Assembly (NCBI GenBank): GCA_902785935.1
Contig: CADAAN010000006.1
Coordinates: forward strand, 4,309 to 68,308
Reading direction: 5' to 3'
DNA length: 64,000 bases
Source: an uncultured Pseudomonadota bacterium
GTDB taxonomy: Bacteria > Pseudomonadota > Alphaproteobacteria > RF32 > CAG-239
This document shows positions 8,395-53,061 of this stretch, in pieces. The position numbers and the translations under genes were made by a program. Positions within the stretch are counted from its first letter, which is position 1, and every line of letters begins with the position of its first letter. The notes under the pieces were generated by a model that saw only the letters and a list, made by a program, of their open reading frames with translations, was not told the origin of the DNA and did not search any database.

Positions 8395-9552
8395 CTATTT
8401 TTTGCTGATTTGTATCATTTTGTTAATGGTATCGTTCAATTTATCGCGTAGGTGTTCAACACCCAAATTGACGTAAACTTGCGTGCTTTGCAGACTTTTG
8501 TGGGTTAAGGCTCGTTTTACCATAAAAGCATCAGCCCCGTTTGCTATCAGATATGTACCTAAGGTATGTCTAAGGTCGTGAATTCGGAAATTTGTTATAT
8601 TTGCCCTGCGCAATATAATTGCCCACGATTTTTTAATATCTACCACATGACCTGATTTTGAAGTCGGAGAATAGAATATCCAATCGCTTTGAGCCGATGA
8701 TTGTCTTTGATATAAAACCTTCATTGCTTCTTCAGCCAGAGCAATCGTTACATTCTCATCTGTTTTTGTTTGCGGAATTTTCCAAATCTTAGCAGACATA
8801 TCTATGTCTTCCCATTTCATTTCAAAAACATTTGATTTGCGAGCTCCGGTAAAGATAAGCATTAAAACAATGTCACGCACCAAATCATCTTCATAAGCGT
8901 AAACCGTTTCCATAAAGCGCTTGAGTTCATTATGCTCTAAATAACGCACACGGGCTTCAACTTTGTTTAATTTGACTGATAATGCAGGGTTCCGACCGTC
9001 AAAACGTTCTTCTTTGATTGCATAGTTGAACATTGTACTGATAAGCTTAATAAAATGATTTGCTATGTAATTGCCGTTTTTGACGGATATTTGCCGATGT
9101 AATTCGCGTAGCATATCGCCGGTTATTTCTTTTAGGTGTTTTCTGCCAAGTTTACACAGCTTTGAATTCCATATTCTTTTGTAATCTAATATTGTTTTTT
9201 GCGCAAGATATCTTTCTCTGTCTGTAATAAAATCATCGTATAACTGTTGCAATAGAGTATCTTGTTTATACTGACGCTTTGTAACGTTAGGGTTTTCTCC
9301 ATCATTCATTTTCTTGCGATTTGTAACGGCGGCAATTCTGGCTTCTTCTACAGTCATAGTCGGAGATTCGCCGAGTTTAACGCGAGTATCATGCCCGAGA
9401 ACTCTTTGTCGGATATAGAAACTTTTTGCCCCGTTCGGAGTTATTTGCAGCGACAGTTTAGGCTCTACCGTATCATAATAATAGGTTCTTTTCTTCGGTA
9501 TCGGTAAGTTTTTGATATTTGTGTTGGTAAACTTAAAATGATTAGCGTTCAT
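8395..9552 (-). CDS. int: Tyrosine recombinase, P4-type integrase
   Basis: N-terminal arm-type domain (KRTYYYDTVEPKLSLQITPNGAKSFYIRQRV). C-terminal catalytic residues are in HDLRHTLGTYL and QVYVN. It lies adjacent to the tRNA fragment. Confidence 0.9.
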   Translation of the reverse strand: MNANHFKFTNTNIKNLPIPKKRTYYYDTVEPKLSLQITPNGAKSFYIRQRVLGHDTRVKLGESPTMTVEEARIAAVTNRKKMNDGENPNVTKRQYKQDTLLQQLYDDFITDRERYLAQKTILDYKRIWNSKLCKLGRKHLKEITGDMLRELHRQISVKNGNYIANHFIKLISTMFNYAIKEERFDGRNPALSVKLNKVEARVRYLEHNELKRFMETVYAYEDDLVRDIVLMLIFTGARKSNVFEMKWEDIDMSAKIWKIPQTKTDENVTIALAEEAMKVLYQRQSSAQSDWIFYSPTSKSGHVVDIKKSWAIILRRANITNFRIHDLRHTLGTYLIANGADAFMVKRALTHKSLQSTQVYVNLGVEHLRDKLNDTINKMIQISKK

Positions 9553-9735
9553 AAGCCCCTCTGTCGTATAGTAATTGTTTTCCGGTGCCGCACTGGTGCC
9601 GCATATTTAAACAAATTTTATCCAATTTAATAAAACTTGTCAAGTAAAATTTTTAAAAATAATATAATAAAAACAAACACATAAATGCATTTTCATAAGA
9701 GATATGATTTTCTAAATAAAACATAATATCAATTA

Positions 9736-15957: not shown

Positions 15958-16038
15958 TTTCTTTTGATAAATAAACCCTCAAATTTTGAATGTCAAAGAA
16001 AAATCATCGTTTTTCAGATGTATTTTTAATTTTTTTGT

Positions 16039-16236
16039 TTGACTTTTATTTTAAAGTATGCCATAATCAAAAGCGTAACCAAAATGGTTATGGTGTTTAG
16101 ATAACACATTCGAGTTAAGGCTCCTTTGAAAGAGGAGTTGTTGATATAAGGCAATTTTTGCTCGAATAAGACAAACTGTAACTCGACAGTTATCTAGCTC
16201 CTCCATTTTGAGATTTTTCAAGATGGATTTTTTTTT
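16039..16236 (+). promoter_or_regulatory. Leader family A, copy A1: promoter + ~160-nt structured leader + terminator
   Basis: TTGACT (16039-16044), 17 nt, CATAAT (16062-16067). The conserved GTAACCAAAATGG starts at 16075. Covarying helices are described in the findings. The hairpin TCCATTTTGA/TCAAGATGGA plus T9 ends at 16236, 30 nt before the LRR gene. Confidence 0.7.
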
Positions 16237-16265: not shown

Positions 16266-17324
16266 ATGAAGAAATATGTTTGGGTTTTTGGACTTATTTT
16301 AAGTTATAATGCACAAGCTTATGATTATAATGATTGTTTTGGTGCAAGCGGATGTCAGCCCTGTCCGAATAGTACGGACGGCAAATGTTTTTATGCTGTT
16401 GAAGGCAGCAAAATGACAATTTATGGCCCGACATCAACCGAACAAAATGCAGATGGCAGCTTAAAAGAAACAACATCGATTCCGCGTTATGCCTTTACCA
16501 ACAGCGATAATGCCAGCAATTTGCCGGAAAATATCACTTCTCTTGAAATAACAGGTAATATCACAACCGTTGAAGGTTATGCTTTTTGCTCTGCCCCTCT
16601 GACAAATGTACAATTTCCTGAGACACTTGAAACAATATCGGAATTGGCTTTTTGGAACAATAATTTATCACAAATCAATTTTCCTAATTCGCTTAAAAAT
16701 ATAGAAGAAGGTGCTTTTAATTGGAATCCATTTTCAGAAATTAATTTACCCGACGGATTAATGACGCTGGAGGGGTTAACAGGTGTTCCCCTGGGGCATG
16801 TTGTTATTCCGGATTCGATTGCAGAGGTTAAAGATGCGATTTTTTCTTCAAACTATCGTTTGCAATCATTGGTTGTCGGCGCAGACACAATGCTTGGCAA
16901 TATTTTTACCTACACAACAGGGGCTGTTAGTGTGCAATTTGATAAATTCAAGATGTTTTGCGCAGAAAATAACGGCTCATGCACAACAGCTTTGCAAAGT
17001 GCCGGTGCAACACAAGAACAAATTGCGCAAATACTGATAAGTTATACAAAAGATGACGCAACAGGCGTTTATCAAACAAGTGACGGAAAATATTATGCCG
17101 ATGTCAATTTGATGGCAAGACAAATGGCTTGCGAAAATAAGCAAAGCTGTGAAATTGCCAGTGCTGATATTCGGGCAGGTCGTCCTTTTGATATGAAAGG
17201 AAAATCTTACGCATCTGTCGATGATTTCATTCAAGGAAAATATATTCCAAAGCGTATCTATACCATCGATGAAGCCAATCATGTCGCGGGCAAGACAAAC
17301 ACTTTTACGATTCGGTATCGATAG
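16266..17324 (+). CDS. Secreted BspA-type leucine-rich-repeat protein with conserved C-terminal tag
   Basis: Signal peptide (...SYNAQA-YD), Cys-rich N-terminus, LRR_5-like repeats (ITSLEITGNITTVEGYAF...). C-terminus KRIYTIDEANHVAGKTNTFTIRYR. Confidence 0.85.
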   Translation: MKKYVWVFGLILSYNAQAYDYNDCFGASGCQPCPNSTDGKCFYAVEGSKMTIYGPTSTEQNADGSLKETTSIPRYAFTNSDNASNLPENITSLEITGNITTVEGYAFCSAPLTNVQFPETLETISELAFWNNNLSQINFPNSLKNIEEGAFNWNPFSEINLPDGLMTLEGLTGVPLGHVVIPDSIAEVKDAIFSSNYRLQSLVVGADTMLGNIFTYTTGAVSVQFDKFKMFCAENNGSCTTALQSAGATQEQIAQILISYTKDDATGVYQTSDGKYYADVNLMARQMACENKQSCEIASADIRAGRPFDMKGKSYASVDDFIQGKYIPKRIYTIDEANHVAGKTNTFTIRYR

Positions 17325-21493: not shown

Positions 21494-21511
21494 ATTTTTT
21501 CTCCATTATGC

Positions 21512-21711
21512 AAAATAAAAAACCGTTTAAGATAAACCAAAAACGGAGGAGCTAAACGAACTGCACTAAATCAGTTAAGCTTATTCGAGGTATTAACCCT
21601 TATATCACTTACTCCTCTCTAAAGGAGTATATTTTTAGTGCAAGTGTCGTTTAAACACCGCAACCATTTTGGTTACGCTTTCATTTAAGCATATATCAAA
21701 ATACTTGTCAA
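21512..21711 (-). promoter_or_regulatory. Leader family A, copy A2: promoter + structured leader + terminator
   Basis: Minus strand: TTGACA (21711-21706), 17 nt, TTAAAT (21688-21683). GTAACCAAAATGGTTGCGGTG starts at 21676. The terminator CCGTTT/AAACGG plus T-run ends near 21512. Confidence 0.7.
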
Positions 21712-40815: not shown

Positions 40816-41673
40816 TTAGCGATACCGAATCGAAAAAGTGTTTGTCTTGCCTGCAACTTGATTGGCCTCATCGATGGTGTAAATGCGCTTTGGTGCGTAA
40901 TGTTGATTGTAAATATCATTTGGGGAACTGTAAAACCTTCCGTTATAATAATAACCTGTTGAGTATTTTTGATAAAATTTAATTTTATCGCCAATTTCTT
41001 CATCGTCTAAAAGAGCCTGACAACTGGCATTTGTGTCTTCGCAATAAATAGCCAAAGATTCTGACAATGCTTTATTTATGGAATTAGTAAGCATTTTTTT
41101 TGTAATCATGGTCGAACCGGATATGGTTAAAGATTTCAATTCCGTGCCGCCTAATGTCCAATCTTCATCTTCAAGAATAACATCTTTGGGTAATACAATA
41201 TCTTCAACTTTTGTACGATTAAAATTAGCCCCTCCGATAAAAGTCAGACTATTTGGTAAATTAATTTTTTCAAGTGATTGAGTATCATTAAAAGCACCAC
41301 CCGAAATCTTTTGAAGTCCTTCGGGTAAAACAGCCTCTCGCAAATCAAACAAATATTCAAAAGCAGAAGAACCAATTGATTTAAATATTTTATCACTTGA
41401 TTCGTTTTCGATAACGACTTTATAAATTTGTGAAGAATAGGCTCCCCAATCGGCTGTATTATGGCACCATGGGTCACAGCTGTGACTATAATTTTTCATA
41501 TCACCATAACCTTTAATGGTTAATGTATTCGTGTTTTTATCAAGTGTTGCTGTACAACTATCATTTGAGGTTGCCGCACAGTCAAATGTACAAATATCAC
41601 TGTTATCACAAAGTGTATCAGCATATGTATTAAAAGCCGTAAATATACAAAAAATATAAATTACTTTTCTCAT
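40816..41673 (-). CDS. Secreted BspA-type LRR protein with conserved C-terminal tag
   Basis: I placed the true start at ATG 41673 (MRKVIYIFCIFTAFNTYA-DT, with GGAGAA 7 nt upstream). The 67-codon N-terminal extension in the track ORF runs through the conserved leader RNA. C-terminus KRIYTIDEANQVAGKTNTFSIRYR. Confidence 0.85.
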   Translation of the reverse strand: MRKVIYIFCIFTAFNTYADTLCDNSDICTFDCAATSNDSCTATLDKNTNTLTIKGYGDMKNYSHSCDPWCHNTADWGAYSSQIYKVVIENESSDKIFKSIGSSAFEYLFDLREAVLPEGLQKISGGAFNDTQSLEKINLPNSLTFIGGANFNRTKVEDIVLPKDVILEDEDWTLGGTELKSLTISGSTMITKKMLTNSINKALSESLAIYCEDTNASCQALLDDEEIGDKIKFYQKYSTGYYYNGRFYSSPNDIYNQHYAPKRIYTIDEANQVAGKTNTFSIRYR

Positions 41674-41694
41674 ATCTTTTCTCCAAAATTTATT

Positions 41695-41987
41695 AAACGA
41701 AAAAACCACTCTAAAATGAGCGGCGGGGAGTAAAAGAATCATGTAATGGAAAATGACTTCCGTAACCTTTAGGTCAAAACCTTGAACATACGCCACGGAC
41801 TCCCCAACCAAAATATCGGGGATAAGCATTGTTTTAAAATAAAAAAACAACACTAAAACAGCGTTATCTCTCACTGTCCATTACAAAAGCTCTTTTAAAG
41901 CCCCGCACCCTTTTCGGGTACTTGATAGAAAAAGCCAAAACCTTCCTATCTGATTTATATTATTACATATCAAAAACATCTTGTCAA
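41695..41987 (-). promoter_or_regulatory. Leader family B, copy B2: promoter + structured leader + terminator
   Basis: Minus strand: TTGACA (41987-41982), 17 nt, AATAAT (41964-41959). Conserved blocks as in B1 and B3. The terminator CCGCTC/GAGTGG plus T5 lies near 41697-41726. Confidence 0.7.
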
Positions 41988-42025
41988 GAAATTTTAAAAT
42001 ATTTTAATACGTGATTTGGCTGTGA

Positions 42026-42213
42026 ACGTAAATAAAAGCTTAGAATGAGCTAGATGCGACGGAAGCTCTTTTACGAAGTGTACAAAAGAGGTTGTATACG
42101 TAAATAAAAGCTTAGAATGAGTCAAGTACGACGTACGGCCGCTTGCGCAGTGTACAAAAAGGGTACATAAGCAAGCGGCCGCACAAGTAATTGGCCATTA
42201 TAAGCTTTTATTT
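42026..42213. repeat. Nested repeat element: 72-bp tandem duplication plus an inverted terminal copy overlapping the nusG stop
   Basis: ACGTAAATAAAAGCTTAGAATGAG occurs at 42026-42049 and 42098-42121. GTGTACAAAA lies 52 nt after each. The inverted copy TAAGCTTTTATTT is at 42201-42213. There is an internal GC-rich hairpin GGCCGCTTGC/GCAAGCGGCC (42137-42180). Confidence 0.6.
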
Positions 42214-45986: not shown

Positions 45987-46020
45987 AACTTTTCTCCTAT
46001 TTTTCTTATTTACACTGTTG

Positions 46021-46212
46021 AAAAAATCACTTCAGAAGATATCCGAAGTGGGAGCTAGAAAACTGTATACATTCAGTCAGACTTATTCGACATTTCAAAA
46101 CGCTTATATCATCTACTCCCGGTAAAAGGAGCGATATGTATAAGGTGTTTTCTAGACACCGCAACCATTTTGGTTACTTTTTTATTTTCACATAAAAAAC
46201 GTAGCTTGTCAA
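46021..46212 (-). promoter_or_regulatory. Leader family A, copy A3: promoter + structured leader + terminator
   Basis: Minus strand: TTGACA (46212-46207), 17 nt, GAAAAT (46189-46184). GTAACCAAAATGGTTGCGGTG starts at 46177. The terminator CACTTCGGA/TTCTGAAGTG plus T6 ends at 46021. Confidence 0.7.
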
Positions 46213-50126: not shown

Positions 50127-50211
50127 GCGGACGTGGCGAAATTGGCAGACGCGCCAGACTTAGGATCTGGTGCCGAAAGGCGTGCGGGTTCAAGTCCCTC
50201 CGTCCGCACCA
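50127..50211 (+). tRNA. tRNA-Leu (UAG), long variable arm
   Basis: 85 nt. Acceptor GCGGACG/CGTCCGC, anticodon loop CTTAGGA, variable stem GCC-gaaa-GGC, T loop TTCAAGT, encoded CCA. One apparent T-stem mismatch. Confidence 0.85.
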
Positions 50212-50228
50212 TTTGTAAAGAGAAAAAA

Positions 50229-51551
50229 ATGAAAGTTACTGAAGAAAAATCAAAAGGTTTGATTAAAAAATTTAAGGCTGTTGTTGATGCCGCCGATTTT
50301 GAAAAAGAAGTTCAAGCACGTATCCAAAAGCTTGCCAAAGAAACAAAACTTCCCGGTTTCAGACCCGGCAAGGCACCGGCCTCAATCATCAATCAAAAAT
50401 TCCGCGGTACGGCTTTGGGCGAGGCTTTGGATAGAGTTGTTCAAAAAGGTGTTGCCGAGATTATCGACTCAAACAAGTTGCGTGTTGCTCGTGAACCTGA
50501 CGTTAAGCTTGAAAAGTTTGAAGACGGCAAAGATGTTGCCTTTAATATAGAAATTGAAACATTGCCTGAAGTCAAATTAAATGATTTTTCTAAAATTAAG
50601 TTAGAAAAACAGATGGCCGACGTCCCTGAAGAAGAAATCAACAAATCTTTGGAATATGTTGCCGCTTCACGTCGCGATAGTGAAGTTGCTCCTGATGATA
50701 AAAAGGCCGCAAAAGGTGATATTACGGTGATTGATTTCAACGGATCGATTGACGGTGTTGAATTTGACGGCGGCAAAGGCAAAGATTATCCTTTAGAGCT
50801 TGGCTCAAATGCATTTATCCCCGGTTTTGAAGATCAGCTTGTCGGCCTTAAAAAAGGTGATAAAAAAGATGTAAAAGTCGCTTTTCCGAAAGATTATCAT
50901 GCTCAAAACTTAGCCGGTAAAGACGCCGTTTTTGCAGTTGAGGTCAAAGAAGTCCGTATCTTAAAAAAGACTGAAATCAATGATGAATTTGCGAAATCAC
51001 TCGGTGCAAAAGATTTGGCCGATTTGAAAGAAAAGGTCGCCGAGCGTATCAAACAAGACTATGAAAGCGCCTCAAAAATGAAGGTTAAACGTGCTTTGTT
51101 GGATGTTTTGGATAAAGAATATAAGATTGAGTTGCCCGAAAGCTTGGTTAAGGCTGAATATGACGGCATTATCAAACAGTATGAGCATGCCAAGGCGCAC
51201 AATGAACTCGACGAATACGAAAAATCCAAAAAAGAAAAGGATCTTTTGAAAGAATATCAGGAGATTGCCGAGCGTCGCGTTAAATTGGGCTTGATTTTGT
51301 CAGAAGTCGGTGCTTTGGAAAAAATCCAAATCACCTCAGATGACTTAAACAAGGCCATTATGAATGAGGCTCGCAGATATCCCGGACAGGAAAAAGCCGT
51401 TTTTGACTTTTATCTCAAAAACAAAAATGCCGTTGAAGCATTAAAGGCGCCTGTGATGGAAGAAAAAATCGTTGATGCCATCCTTGCAAAAGTTCAGTTA
51501 ACCGAGAAAAAAGTTTCGGTCAAAGAACTTTATACTTTTGACGAGAAATAA
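50229..51551 (+). CDS. tig: Trigger factor
   Basis: 440 aa with ribosome-binding, FKBP-type PPIase (FPGFRPGKAP ... GGKGKDYPLELGSNAFIPGFEDQLVG) and C-terminal domains. The start was moved from the track's 50133, which overlaps the tRNA-Leu. Confidence 0.9.
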   Translation: MKVTEEKSKGLIKKFKAVVDAADFEKEVQARIQKLAKETKLPGFRPGKAPASIINQKFRGTALGEALDRVVQKGVAEIIDSNKLRVAREPDVKLEKFEDGKDVAFNIEIETLPEVKLNDFSKIKLEKQMADVPEEEINKSLEYVAASRRDSEVAPDDKKAAKGDITVIDFNGSIDGVEFDGGKGKDYPLELGSNAFIPGFEDQLVGLKKGDKKDVKVAFPKDYHAQNLAGKDAVFAVEVKEVRILKKTEINDEFAKSLGAKDLADLKEKVAERIKQDYESASKMKVKRALLDVLDKEYKIELPESLVKAEYDGIIKQYEHAKAHNELDEYEKSKKEKDLLKEYQEIAERRVKLGLILSEVGALEKIQITSDDLNKAIMNEARRYPGQEKAVFDFYLKNKNAVEALKAPVMEEKIVDAILAKVQLTEKKVSVKELYTFDEK

Positions 51552-51655: not shown

Positions 51656-52186
51656 ATGAAAAATTTAAAAATTAAAAAGGGAGCCCTGCGCATTCGCCAG
51701 GCCTCTTTGGTGCTCGACACCAGAAAAACATTGCTAGCCATCAAGCTCACTGAGGCAGAAGCGTTTTCGCCTGAGGTGTTCTCCAAAAAATTCAAGGATT
51801 ATCCTTTAGGAAAACGCCTTGAATTTGGAGAAAAATACGAGGGATACATTGCCATCTGGCACCTCGGAAGACCGGAGATTAATTTTCTCCGCGGCACGCT
51901 TGAGCTTCAAACGGAGCGTGCCATCTGGAATACCCGGATCAATGAGCTCCTACAGGAAGAAAGGTACCTCCGCGTCGACGGCTCGCTGGAGTATGTTTGG
52001 GCCTTTGCCGATTGTTCATCAGAGATGATGGACACGGTAAAAGAAAAGCTCACAACAGCCCTGAGAATGTCCGCCCTCACCGGTGATGATCCTATTGCCC
52101 GGCTGACGGATGAAGAAGACAGGAACCTCAGGAAATACCTGGGGAGCTCGTACTATAAGACCTTCTTCACTGAACTGGAAGACTAG
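51656..52186 (+). CDS. Hypothetical protein on a high-GC single-gene insert
   Basis: 176-aa ORF with GC-rich codon usage (CTC/CTG/GAG) unlike its neighbours. It has its own promoter and terminator. No motif recognised. Confidence 0.6.
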   Translation: MKNLKIKKGALRIRQASLVLDTRKTLLAIKLTEAEAFSPEVFSKKFKDYPLGKRLEFGEKYEGYIAIWHLGRPEINFLRGTLELQTERAIWNTRINELLQEERYLRVDGSLEYVWAFADCSSEMMDTVKEKLTTALRMSALTGDDPIARLTDEEDRNLRKYLGSSYYKTFFTELED

Positions 52187-52203: not shown

Positions 52204-52236
52204 AACCGGCAACCTTTAAAAGTTGCCGGTTTTTTC
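52204..52236 (+). terminator. Terminator of the 51656 gene
   Basis: AACCGGCAAC-ctttaaaa-GTTGCCGGTT followed by T5. Confidence 0.7.
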
Positions 52237-52252: not shown

Positions 52253-52843
52253 TTAGTAGTCCCCTCTGATTACATGATAAAACCGACAGCTATCTAAACT
52301 TGTTTCACATGCCTGACAGCCCTCAATGATATCAGACATTTTGACCTCCGTAATACCTCCTGTAGGCCAATATATATCCTTACCGCCCACCTCTATCAAT
52401 CCGCCTGTCCACCATTCAACCGGGACGGCATTTTCCCATCCTGCAGAGGCAAAAGCAATACACGATTTTGAATCGGTGAAATGGATAACAAATTCACCCT
52501 GAACATATGAACCACCGCTATCATAAAAATCCATATTCAGCGTTCCTATCGGAAGTTTGCAAGCCTCGTCTCCATTAAGATCCGTTGTTACTTGACAATC
52601 CGGTAAAAGCCCGTATTGAATTAAATCTTCGGCATCACGAATCTCAATACCTTCTCCCCAGCCTTTTTGCTCCAACTCCATAAAGCGTTGAAGAATTTGA
52701 TTATATGTGTCAATTGTTTGATTCATTTTGTATTTAAACATTGCGGCAGAATAACCTTTGAGTGCGCCCGCCGACAACACACCGACAATAGCCAACACGC
52801 CCAGCATTTCAACCATACTTCTACCTATTTCATTAATTTTCAT
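52253..52843 (-). CDS. Type IV pilin / pseudopilin-like protein
   Basis: The N-terminus MKINEIG-RSMVEMLGVLAIVGVLSAG has a prepilin-type signal with Glu at +5, followed by a hydrophobic helix. Confidence 0.75.
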   Translation of the reverse strand: MKINEIGRSMVEMLGVLAIVGVLSAGALKGYSAAMFKYKMNQTIDTYNQILQRFMELEQKGWGEGIEIRDAEDLIQYGLLPDCQVTTDLNGDEACKLPIGTLNMDFYDSGGSYVQGEFVIHFTDSKSCIAFASAGWENAVPVEWWTGGLIEVGGKDIYWPTGGITEVKMSDIIEGCQACETSLDSCRFYHVIRGDY

Positions 52844-52863
52844 TGGTTATACCTTTCTTTCAT

Positions 52864-53061
52864 AAAAAAAATTCCGTTTTATATAACCAAAAACGGAGGA
52901 GCTAACTAACTGCCATTGTACAGCTTGCTTTATTCGCGCATCACTAAAATACCTTATATCAGCAACTCCTCATCAAGGAGCTATACAATGGATGTGTTAG
53001 TTAAACACCGCAACCATTTTGGTTACATCCTGATTATTTCATACAAAAGCATAAAAGTCAA
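52864..53061 (-). promoter_or_regulatory. Leader family A, copy A4: promoter + structured leader + terminator (pilin-like gene)
   Basis: Minus strand: TTGACT (53061-53056), 17 nt, AATAAT (53038-53033). GTAACCAAAATGGTTGCGGTG starts at 53026. The terminator CCGTTTT/AAAACGG plus T8 ends at 52864. Confidence 0.7.

Follow-up and report, generated by a model that had tools for sequence, protein, structure and literature searches.

A covarying family of leader RNAs with a predicted termination switch upstream of pilin and surface-protein genes in uncultured gut Alphaproteobacteria

The stretch of DNA analysed here (the window) comprises 64,000 nt of contig CADAAN010000006.1 (assembly GCA_902785935.1, positions 4,309 to 68,308), from an uncultured member of the Alphaproteobacteria. 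On its minus strand, at window positions 53061-52864, lies a short unit, A4, which consists of a sigma-70-type promoter, a structured RNA and an intrinsic terminator and stands directly before a type IVb pilin-like gene. We propose that A4 is a structured leader RNA, not catalogued until now, which acts in cis as a transcription-termination switch, most likely a small-molecule riboswitch, a reading to which we assign a probability of about 0.5. Beyond a promoter and a terminator, the family to which A4 belongs (family A) is a covarying, switch-like RNA, which in other lineages is also found before genes for small helix-turn-helix (HTH) regulators. Leaders that choose between a terminator and an antiterminator are a mechanism class already known; however the family A RNA, its sister families, the four-segment toggle common to them and the associated regulon of pilin, leucine-rich repeat (LRR) and HTH genes match nothing in Rfam 15.

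The A4 unit and its relatives

The A4 promoter (53061-53033; all A4 features are on the minus strand) agrees with the consensus at 10 of 12 positions, and includes a -35 box TTGACT (53061-53056), a 17-nt spacer, an extended -10 TG (53041-53040) and a -10 box AATAAT (53038-53033). The elements TTGAC and TGnNAtAAT are kept in all four family A copies of the window. Transcription would start at approximately 53028-53026, and a hairpin, GUAACCAAAAUGGUUGC, begins ~7 nt after the -10 box in A4 and likewise in other metagenome-assembled genomes (MAGs), followed by a conserved stretch of ~115 nt with the end UAGCUCCUCC. Counted from ~53026 the structured RNA is ~140 nt long, or ~165 nt including the terminator, and has a predicted folding energy of -55.2 kcal/mol (z = -4.7 compared to shuffled sequences). 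The terminator (52897-52864) is made up of the hairpin UCCGUUUUUGGUUAUAUAAAACGGA, which divides into UCCGUUUU-UGGUUAUAU-AAAACGGA (52897-52873), then AA and a run of eight U residues (52871-52864); the 8-bp stem is predicted at -8.0 kcal/mol by RNAfold, as expected for an intrinsic terminator. This hairpin was overlooked by a simple terminator scan that was limited to loops of 8 nt, its own loop being 9 nt. The start codon of the pilin gene lies 20 nt downstream.

The first-pass annotation had placed A4 in the same leader family as a set of LRR gene leaders, and this is borne out. Using blastn with A4 as the query we found three homologous copies in the window, at 16038-16236 (plus strand), 21676-21513 (minus) and 46199-46103 (minus), with 72–73% identity and E values of 1e-25 to 7e-9. 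A covariance model built from 12 window-like sequences, with a structure checked by hand (R1), recovers A4 as a full-length, intact copy at 144 bits; the four window copies score 133–148 bits, far above chance, while the next match in the window reaches 20 bits. The other three precede LRR_5 genes: A1 (16038-16236, plus; 147.9 bits) before the gene 16266-17324, A2 (21505-21710, minus; 132.8 bits) before 21493-20594 and A3 (46009-46212, minus; 141.5 bits) before 45986-45087. A4 had also been described as almost identical to A2, which was overstated: A2 does have the first 12 nt of the A4 terminator (CCGTTTTTGGTT), but over the whole unit the two are 69% identical and the closest window copy to A4 is A1 (75%). 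Nor do A4 and A2 have a terminator in common as had been claimed, since CCGTTTTTGGTTATATAAAACGG occurs exactly once in the window, even when three mismatches are allowed.

Scanning one genome per GTDB species with an IUPAC pattern made up of three conserved blocks identified 44 loci, of which 39 belong to 15 uncultured Alphaproteobacteria MAGs from the gut or rumen of humans, mice, rabbits, deer and cattle. The remaining five (L008, L014, L022, L039, L044) lie outside the Alphaproteobacteria, lack flanking similarity and were rejected as chance matches. A second pattern applied to metagenomes gave 41 loci, 23 of them true according to the covariance model, from rumen and human gut; the window is likewise derived from assemblies of rumen metagenomes. 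In total family A includes ~55 distinct copies, from the 15 species-level gut and rumen MAGs together with the metagenomes; there are 2–6 copies per MAG even under the strict pattern, and R1 scores for all MAG copies range from 64 to 155 bits. Two degenerate copies (L003:3515-3680, minus; L011:9-175, plus), which score 42–60 bits and lack the 5' strands of helices P2 and P2a described below, each stand in tandem with an intact copy, directly upstream of it.

When all 4227 models of Rfam 15, c-di-GMP-I, c-di-GMP-II, T-box, PyrR and ROSE among them, were run over the whole window at gathering thresholds, only two tRNAs passed. With the threshold relaxed to E = 10 for A4 and to E = 1 for the L001 leader and the family B leader B61, matches stayed at chance level, at most 21 bits compared to cut-offs of 36–376. 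A full-text literature search found no description of this leader motif. No family A copy is present in the phage collection, the plasmid collection or IMG/VR, and there are no flanking repeats, both of which speak against the idea that the family is a duplication relic or a mobile repeat, in which leader and gene were simply copied together. This would fit the LRR genes behind A1–A3, which are paralogues with a common C-terminal tag, but the same leader also precedes unrelated families (pilin, LRR, cysteine-rich and HTH proteins), and its helices have diverged by compensatory changes while the unpaired core has remained fixed. We consider the chance of such an origin to be close to negligible.

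Secondary structure and alternative pairing

The structure was tested in an alignment of 59 sequences (58 distinct) and contains six helices. Pairing holds in 97.9% of their cells, and compensatory double changes support 28 of the 36 pairs. Covariation scores 0.759, compared to 0.230 for shuffled alignments, none of 500 shuffles reaching the observed value, and in controls with slid partners 33–42% of cells were paired. At the 5' end of the RNA is the hairpin P1 (GUAACC-AAAAU-GGUUGC, 53026-53010), with compensatory changes at all six pairs among the 58 sequences and 99.4% of cells paired, followed by a linker GGUGU (53009-53005) that is invariant in the conservation profile. P2 joins the strand UUAACUAAC (53004-52996) to GUUAGUUAG (52910-52902) by nine pairs, six of them compensatory (98.8% paired), and its complementary core differs in each of the four window copies. 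P2a, with the 5' strand CCAUUGUA (52991-52984) and its partner at 52920-52913, shows compensatory changes at all seven modelled pairs (98.0% paired) and closes a three-way junction whose branches are P3 and P4; the dinucleotide CA (52912-52911) lies between the 3' strands of P2a and P2. P3 is the hairpin GCUCCU-UGAUG-AGGAGU (52981-52965; 95.6% paired), the 3' arm of which, GAGGAGU (52971-52965), is the toggle strand discussed below. P4 (UGCU/AGCA, 52964-52961 with 52929-52926; four pairs, 99.6% paired) carries a quasi-symmetric internal loop, GAUAUAA (52960-52954) opposite GAAUAA (52935-52930), a G-C pair (52953:52936) and a variable hairpin P4a (52952-52938; 95.2% paired), and is followed by the junction AGCUG (52925-52921), in which CUG is invariant.

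Approximately 28 unpaired positions are at least 97% conserved across family A, and many conserved unpaired positions are typical of ligand-binding RNAs. The letters of the P4 internal loop reach the same level, in part because the search patterns forced them; in copies that were found independently of the patterns, via the pilin protein, the first loop strand is UGAAAUAAG, CGAGAUAAG or CGAAUAAGG (the last in the pair CGAAUAAGG/CAAAUAAG). Family A therefore has the conserved, covarying domain with many conserved unpaired nucleotides that is expected of a riboswitch, although the patterns have biased the conservation of its core. The P4 loop resembles, at the level of sequence only, the UAA/GAN internal-loop motif, a recurrent structural module of RNA, each strand reading GA(N)...UAA. 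It can be written as two such modules related by two-fold symmetry, which a strand swap in one related leader (L092, see below) fits, but in A4 there is an extra A (52957) between the modules.

Directly after P2 lies an invariant CUCC box (CUCCUCC in A4, 52901-52895), which overlaps the foot of the terminator, the terminator hairpin starting 4–6 nt into the box. A hairpin with a U-rich tail is present at this position in 55 of 57 distinct family A members (-5.6 to -16.9 kcal/mol); from lineage to lineage the stems have unrelated sequences. Besides its own 5' arm, the 3' arm of P3 (nGGAGU) also complements G+CUCC+n of the box, which thus offers it an alternative partner (seven contiguous pairs in A4). 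The arm:box helix is paired in 99.1% of cells, and its variable position is occupied by AU, GC, UA, GU, UG and CG, with 31 double changes. Columns 108 and 204 of the alignment both covary with column 126, which pairs within P3 and with the box, and a single nucleotide covarying with both partners marks a switch. In the raw sequences the arm:box helix extends to 7–10 contiguous pairs, with a mean of 7.7 compared to 6.2 when arms and boxes are cross-paired, a value reached in none of 2000 permutations, and it occupies the bottom 2–5 nt of the terminator stem. Another candidate antiterminator, the 5' GGUG or the P1 3' arm acting on the 5' arm of the terminator, was rejected (4.60 contiguous bp, compared to 4.70 in permutations).

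The alternative fold needs P2 and P2a to be open, and both could be replaced by local hairpins, GGUG..CAYC and CUG(U)..(A)CAG. In the first, the GGUGU linker and the nearby CACA/CAYC (52996-52993) can form a local 'anti-P2' hairpin, which is compensatory in L098 (GGCG/ACGC) and L092 (GGGG/CCUC); alternatively the linker can pair with the CUCC box and lengthen P2. In the second, the junction CUG can pair with CAG (52912-52910) as a local hairpin around the 3' strand of P2a when the alternative helix is enforced, and L092 has CUAUU/AAUAG at the equivalent place. The two pairings of the P3 arm are predicted to be mutually exclusive, as would be required of a riboswitch expression platform. In a nearest-neighbour model of A4, the domain plus terminator has -54.8 kcal/mol, compared to -45.6 kcal/mol with the alternative helix enforced, and in this model the unit looks OFF by default.

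We propose that the RNA would be transcribed from its own sigma-70-type promoter and would begin with hairpin P1. In the OFF state the next ~115 nt would fold compactly, P2 and P2a closing the three-way junction with P3 and P4, so that the CUCC box would be free, or weakly held by the 5' GGUG, and the adjacent hairpin and U8 run would stop transcription before the pilin gene. In the ON state the P3 3' arm (GAGGAGU) would exchange its 5' partner for the box (GCUCCUC), the local hairpins GGUGU..ACAC and CUG..CAG would stand in for P2 and P2a, and the arm:box helix would take up the foot of the terminator stem (2–5 nt) and permit read-through into the gene.

It could be argued that the leader is instead a constitutive structured 5' untranslated region (UTR), serving as an mRNA stabiliser, a promoter insulator or a source of fixed low read-through with no regulated switching. 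A 5'-terminal hairpin such as P1 is a classic mRNA stabiliser, and the strongly favoured OFF fold would also be in keeping with this. However, selection keeps two exclusive pairings of one strand, as seen in the three-way covariation and the helix extension, and the local hairpins of the alternative fold are maintained as well; a strong terminator before the gene in 55 of 57 members is furthermore hard to explain without conditional read-through, and we regard a constitutive role as improbable. An attenuator driven by a leader peptide was rejected, as an AUG in the P1 loop opens short open reading frames (ORFs) in window-type copies only and P1 of the other lineages contains no start codon.

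Regulated genes and sister leader families

The gene behind A4 (52843-52253, minus; 196 aa) had been called pilin-like, and the position of the leader before it is confirmed. Its product has the prepilin-type N-terminus MKINEIG/RSMVEML (MKINEIG/RSMVEMLGVLAIVGVL, with Gly at -1 and Glu at +5) and is 50% identical over 82 aa to a paralogue encoded at 61230-60649, which matches Pfam PilS and Bundlin. An AlphaFold model based on 39 homologues (predicted local distance difference test score, pLDDT, 88; predicted template modelling score, pTM, 0.80) consists of a helix (residues 12-60) followed by a beta-sheet, so that the protein has both the N-terminus and the helix-plus-sheet fold of a type IV pilin. 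Pfam N_methyl scored 14.2 bits, below the cut-off of 21.2, and Foldseek on the A4 pilin by itself gave no significant match. A possible upstream ORF of seven codons (AUGAAAGAAAGGUAUAACCAAUGA, 52840-52863, minus) directly follows the terminator U-run; its UGA stop overlaps the pilin AUG (AUGA), it is not preceded by a Shine-Dalgarno (SD) sequence, and it may be incidental. At the other end of the gene, a GC-rich hairpin with T-runs (52204-52231) between the convergent genes 51656-52186 (plus) and 52843-52253 (minus) is probably a bidirectional terminator that closes the pilin transcript.

Approximately 100 full-length homologues of the A4 pilin are found in Alphaproteobacteria MAGs, and 12 of the genes (the window's own and 11 others) were fetched by exact protein look-up, blind to the leader. 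Each of the 12 stands alone, with housekeeping genes on both sides. A family A leader precedes six of them (the window, L090/L091, L095, L098, L099 and L100; 87–116 bits), a leader of the separate family B three (L086, L087 and L088, the L086 protein being 79% identical to that of A4) and a variant that we call C one (L092), while two have no recognisable leader (L093 and L094). The association of a leader with the pilin gene is thus a conserved feature, and pilin genes that are close relatives exchange one leader family for another.

Four kinds of gene lie downstream of family A leaders: secreted BspA-type LRR_5 proteins, secreted cysteine-rich proteins, type IVb pilin-like proteins and small XRE-type HTH proteins. 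The LRR_5 targets belong to the window lineage and its rumen relatives, PF13306 being present in 8 of 10 sampled secreted proteins behind A leaders in related MAGs, whereas the HTH targets (monocistronic genes of 73–113 aa, PF01381/PF13413) are found in human-gut and other lineages. The proteins behind A1–A3 have a signal peptide, BspA-type LRR_5 repeats and a C-terminal tag ending in IRYR. Five LRR_5 proteins in the window have this tag in common, ...(R)IYTIDEANxxAGKxNxFxIRYR-stop, which may be a sorting or secretion signal (ORF ends at 17324, plus, and 20594, 29407, 40816 and 45087, minus). All five of these genes, and both pilin transcription units, are located behind an A or B leader. All identifiable downstream genes are co-oriented with the leader, with the start codon mostly 45–85 nt past the box and in a few cases farther, so that every copy with an identifiable downstream ORF has the 5' UTR location of a riboswitch.

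In units of the HTH and cysteine-rich types the ribosome-binding region is GGAGUUAA, GGAGCUAA or UGGAGCU, and the SD region forms 7–9 contiguous pairs with UUAGCUCC, compared to a background mean of 4.7 for other genes at the same loci. The OFF fold would thus also mask the SD sequence in units of both types, and in the HTH-type lineages it would block translation as well. A different reading is that each unit is an independent small RNA gene of ~165 nt acting in trans, for example through its CUCC/GGAG motifs on ribosome-binding sites. The units do have their own promoter, an efficient-looking terminator, motifs that resemble SD and anti-SD sequences, and multiple copies. However, wherever a neighbour can be identified, the copy stands immediately before a gene of the same orientation that has no other promoter-like spacer, which is not the setting of an independent gene; the SD region to which the box is complementary in HTH-type units is that of the unit's own downstream gene; and the terminator of each unit varies in sequence together with that unit's own box and P3 arm, which leaves a trans-acting RNA highly improbable. 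In the HTH-type leaders (for example L001:4540-4570, L005 and L010) a complementary AACAAAA comes after the terminator U-tract UUUUGUUUU, and the two form a conserved weak hairpin just before the SD sequence.

Family B leaders are ~280 nt long, have no Rfam match and occur three times in the window on the minus strand (~30835-30555, ~41965-41680 and ~61525-61240), where they precede two of the tag-bearing LRR genes and the pilin pair 61230-60649 / 60609-59995. RNAalifold on these three and three from other contigs predicted 72 pairs, 28 of which show compensatory changes. The predicted features include a pair of 5' hairpins and the pairing of GGRG to a CYCC box directly ahead of the terminator, where one A-U pair has changed to G-C, as well as an internal hairpin UCCCCG/CGGGGAG, the 3' arm of which also matches the box and which is compensatory in L086 (GGGGUA/UACCCC). 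The variant C leader (L092:5808-5990, plus; -67.5 kcal/mol, z = -6.2), located before a pilin homologue, keeps the family A architecture with a different toggle, CAGUC/GACUGG/CCAGUC (GACUGGA/UCCAGUC in L092); here GGGG closes the domain, and GGGG:UUCC is present in the minimum-free-energy fold of L092. The strands of its internal loop are swapped (UAGAAUAAG ... UGAAUAUA), which implies that the loop is quasi two-fold symmetric. We rejected the possibility that B is a divergent form of A: R1 gives 20 bits on the B leader B41, owing to P1 and GCGG common to both, and models of A detect neither B nor C. Families A, B and C thus have in common the logic of a three-partner toggle, and not their sequence.

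It had been suggested that A leaders link the pilin-like and LRR genes in one class of regulatory unit and that family B does so independently. The first part stands, given the pilin homologues, the window LRR genes and the PF13306 proteins behind A leaders, as does the second, with B leaders before three of the 12 pilin homologues and before LRR genes and a pilin pair in the window. As judged from sequence, the A and B leaders together support the placement of these genes in a single class.

Two further observations concern the surroundings of B41. The mechanically called LRR ORF 40816-41874 (minus; GTG at 41874) is over-extended, as the B41 leader and its terminator reach ~41685 and the real start must therefore lie below 41685. 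Repeats are present just upstream of the B41 promoter (42018-42213), including two exact 23-nt copies 72 nt apart on the minus strand (42027-42049 and 42099-42121), and a similar GACTCATT(C/T)T motif precedes the two pilin homologues that lack a leader (L093 and L094).

Candidate signals, precedents and other window features

A precedent exists in Clostridioides difficile, whose pilA1, adhesin and further surface genes are controlled through termination or read-through by 16 riboswitches for cyclic di-GMP (c-di-GMP). These fall into two unrelated classes, of which class I turns its targets off and class II turns them on, and truncated leader RNAs have been seen (PMC6200980). Family A is similar to these c-di-GMP-I (GEMM) and c-di-GMP-II RNAs in its many copies per genome, in the presence of two unrelated RNA classes in one genome and in its location in the 5' UTR of type IV pilin, adhesin and regulator genes. 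It differs in that A4 matches neither Rfam model, even at E up to 10, and in an architecture composed of P1 and then a P2/P2a three-way junction with a symmetric internal loop. On our reading the compact domain would be the sensor of a putative effector, most likely a small molecule that is bound directly and shifts the balance between the folds; stabilisation of the domain would lead to termination, and expression of the downstream gene would be controlled accordingly. A small molecule is favoured because of the size and conservation of the domain, its use in multiple copies and the C. difficile precedent.

Several observations weigh against a small-molecule switch. The search patterns required three of the conserved blocks, so that part of the invariance is imposed, and the alignment was fitted to the model and contains many sequences that share descent. 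In A4 the arm:box helix overlaps the terminator by only 2 nt of the 8-bp stem, and the OFF fold is ~9 kcal/mol more stable than the ON fold, such that read-through would have to be kinetically controlled or helped by a factor with a preference for the ON state. Neither fold removes the conserved internal loop, which may have a purely structural role or bind a protein. Complementarity between box and SD is 3 bp in A4, the second layer of control being absent from window-type units. Lastly, the targets (pilin, LRR, cysteine-rich and HTH proteins) are non-metabolic and include no gene that would indicate a ligand; such a target set is compatible only with a ligand of the signalling type.

Some of these points are equally consistent with the same two-fold attenuator having a protein as its sensor, which would bind the symmetric loop or the P1-GGUG module common to A and B and, as an antiterminator or a promoter of termination, decide between the folds, much like PyrR, TRAP, BglG/SacY, ANTAR or LoaP-type systems. 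The targets are paralogous surface proteins and small regulators rather than metabolic genes, the different leaders A, B and C before homologous pilins would fit cognate pairs of protein and RNA equally well, a two-fold symmetric loop could take a dimer, and an active antiterminator would be useful where the OFF fold is thermodynamically dominant. On the other hand, there is no conserved neighbouring gene for a regulator of this kind, the flanking genes differing at every copy, and no candidate protein was found. Known protein-bound attenuator RNAs are also far simpler than six helices with ~28 conserved unpaired positions: the PyrR, BglG/SacY ribonucleic antiterminator (RAT), ANTAR and TRAP RNAs are likewise cis leaders in which an upstream element decides terminator formation, but they are short hairpins or repeats, and family A differs from them in this respect and in having no linked gene for a cognate protein. 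The Rfam PyrR model scores 17.4 bits compared to a cut-off of 54, similar families give no match, and the permissive scan of A4 reported no family of the BglG/SacY RAT, ANTAR or TRAP type. We therefore view a protein sensor as a serious rival, if somewhat unlikely, and retain the small-molecule riboswitch as the preferred reading.

Other known leaders resemble family A in part. Like trp-type 1-2-3-4 attenuators it has four segments (GGUG, P3 5' CUCC, P3 3' GGAG and box CUCC) with two exclusive pairings, and as in these attenuators and in riboswitch platforms, one of the two pairings permits a downstream intrinsic terminator. However, it has no conserved leader peptide, its nested pairing closes a large conserved domain and not a bare hairpin, and its antiterminator overlaps only the foot of the terminator. 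T-box leaders are also long, multi-helix 5' leaders that choose between terminator and antiterminator and occur in several copies per genome, but family A has no Rfam T-box match and no evident specifier loop or T-box sequence, and its targets are not aminoacyl-tRNA synthetase or amino-acid genes.

A bolder version of the riboswitch reading, which we think unlikely, is that A (with variant C) and B are two new riboswitch classes for a second messenger or a signal from the host or gut, which jointly gate the surface repertoire of adhesins and pili together with the small HTH regulators. Considering the pilin and adhesin regulon and the symmetric loop, the signal that first comes to mind is c-di-GMP or another cyclic dinucleotide, and by analogy with C. 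difficile, classes A and B might have opposite polarity. A GGDEF signature was absent from the other loci examined, a sample too small to bear on c-di-GMP signalling, and one truncated PAS-GGDEF gene is annotated in the related contig L094.

If the small-molecule reading is correct, family A would add a well-supported orphan riboswitch-like RNA class, with B as a sister class, from a lineage without cultured members. Within the sampled region, essentially every adhesin-like or pilin gene that can be recognised appears to be under the control of these leaders, and the identity of the effector would reveal the signal by which these gut symbionts remodel their surface. As the units are short, self-contained and multi-copy (promoter, sensor, terminator), the hypothesis is directly testable in vitro. 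The four-segment toggle, present in three structurally different leaders, would be a natural example of modular expression-platform design.

Two features elsewhere in the window are of separate interest. A small integrated element probably occupies ~6200-9600, where genes for an HTH_17/pentapeptide protein (6214-7152), an AbiEi antitoxin-like regulator (7542-8303) and a phage-type integrase (8395-9552) are found. The called start of a trigger-factor-like ORF (50133-51551) overlaps a tRNA that has a long variable arm (50127-50208, plus; 53.5 bits), and the real start of this ORF must therefore lie farther downstream.

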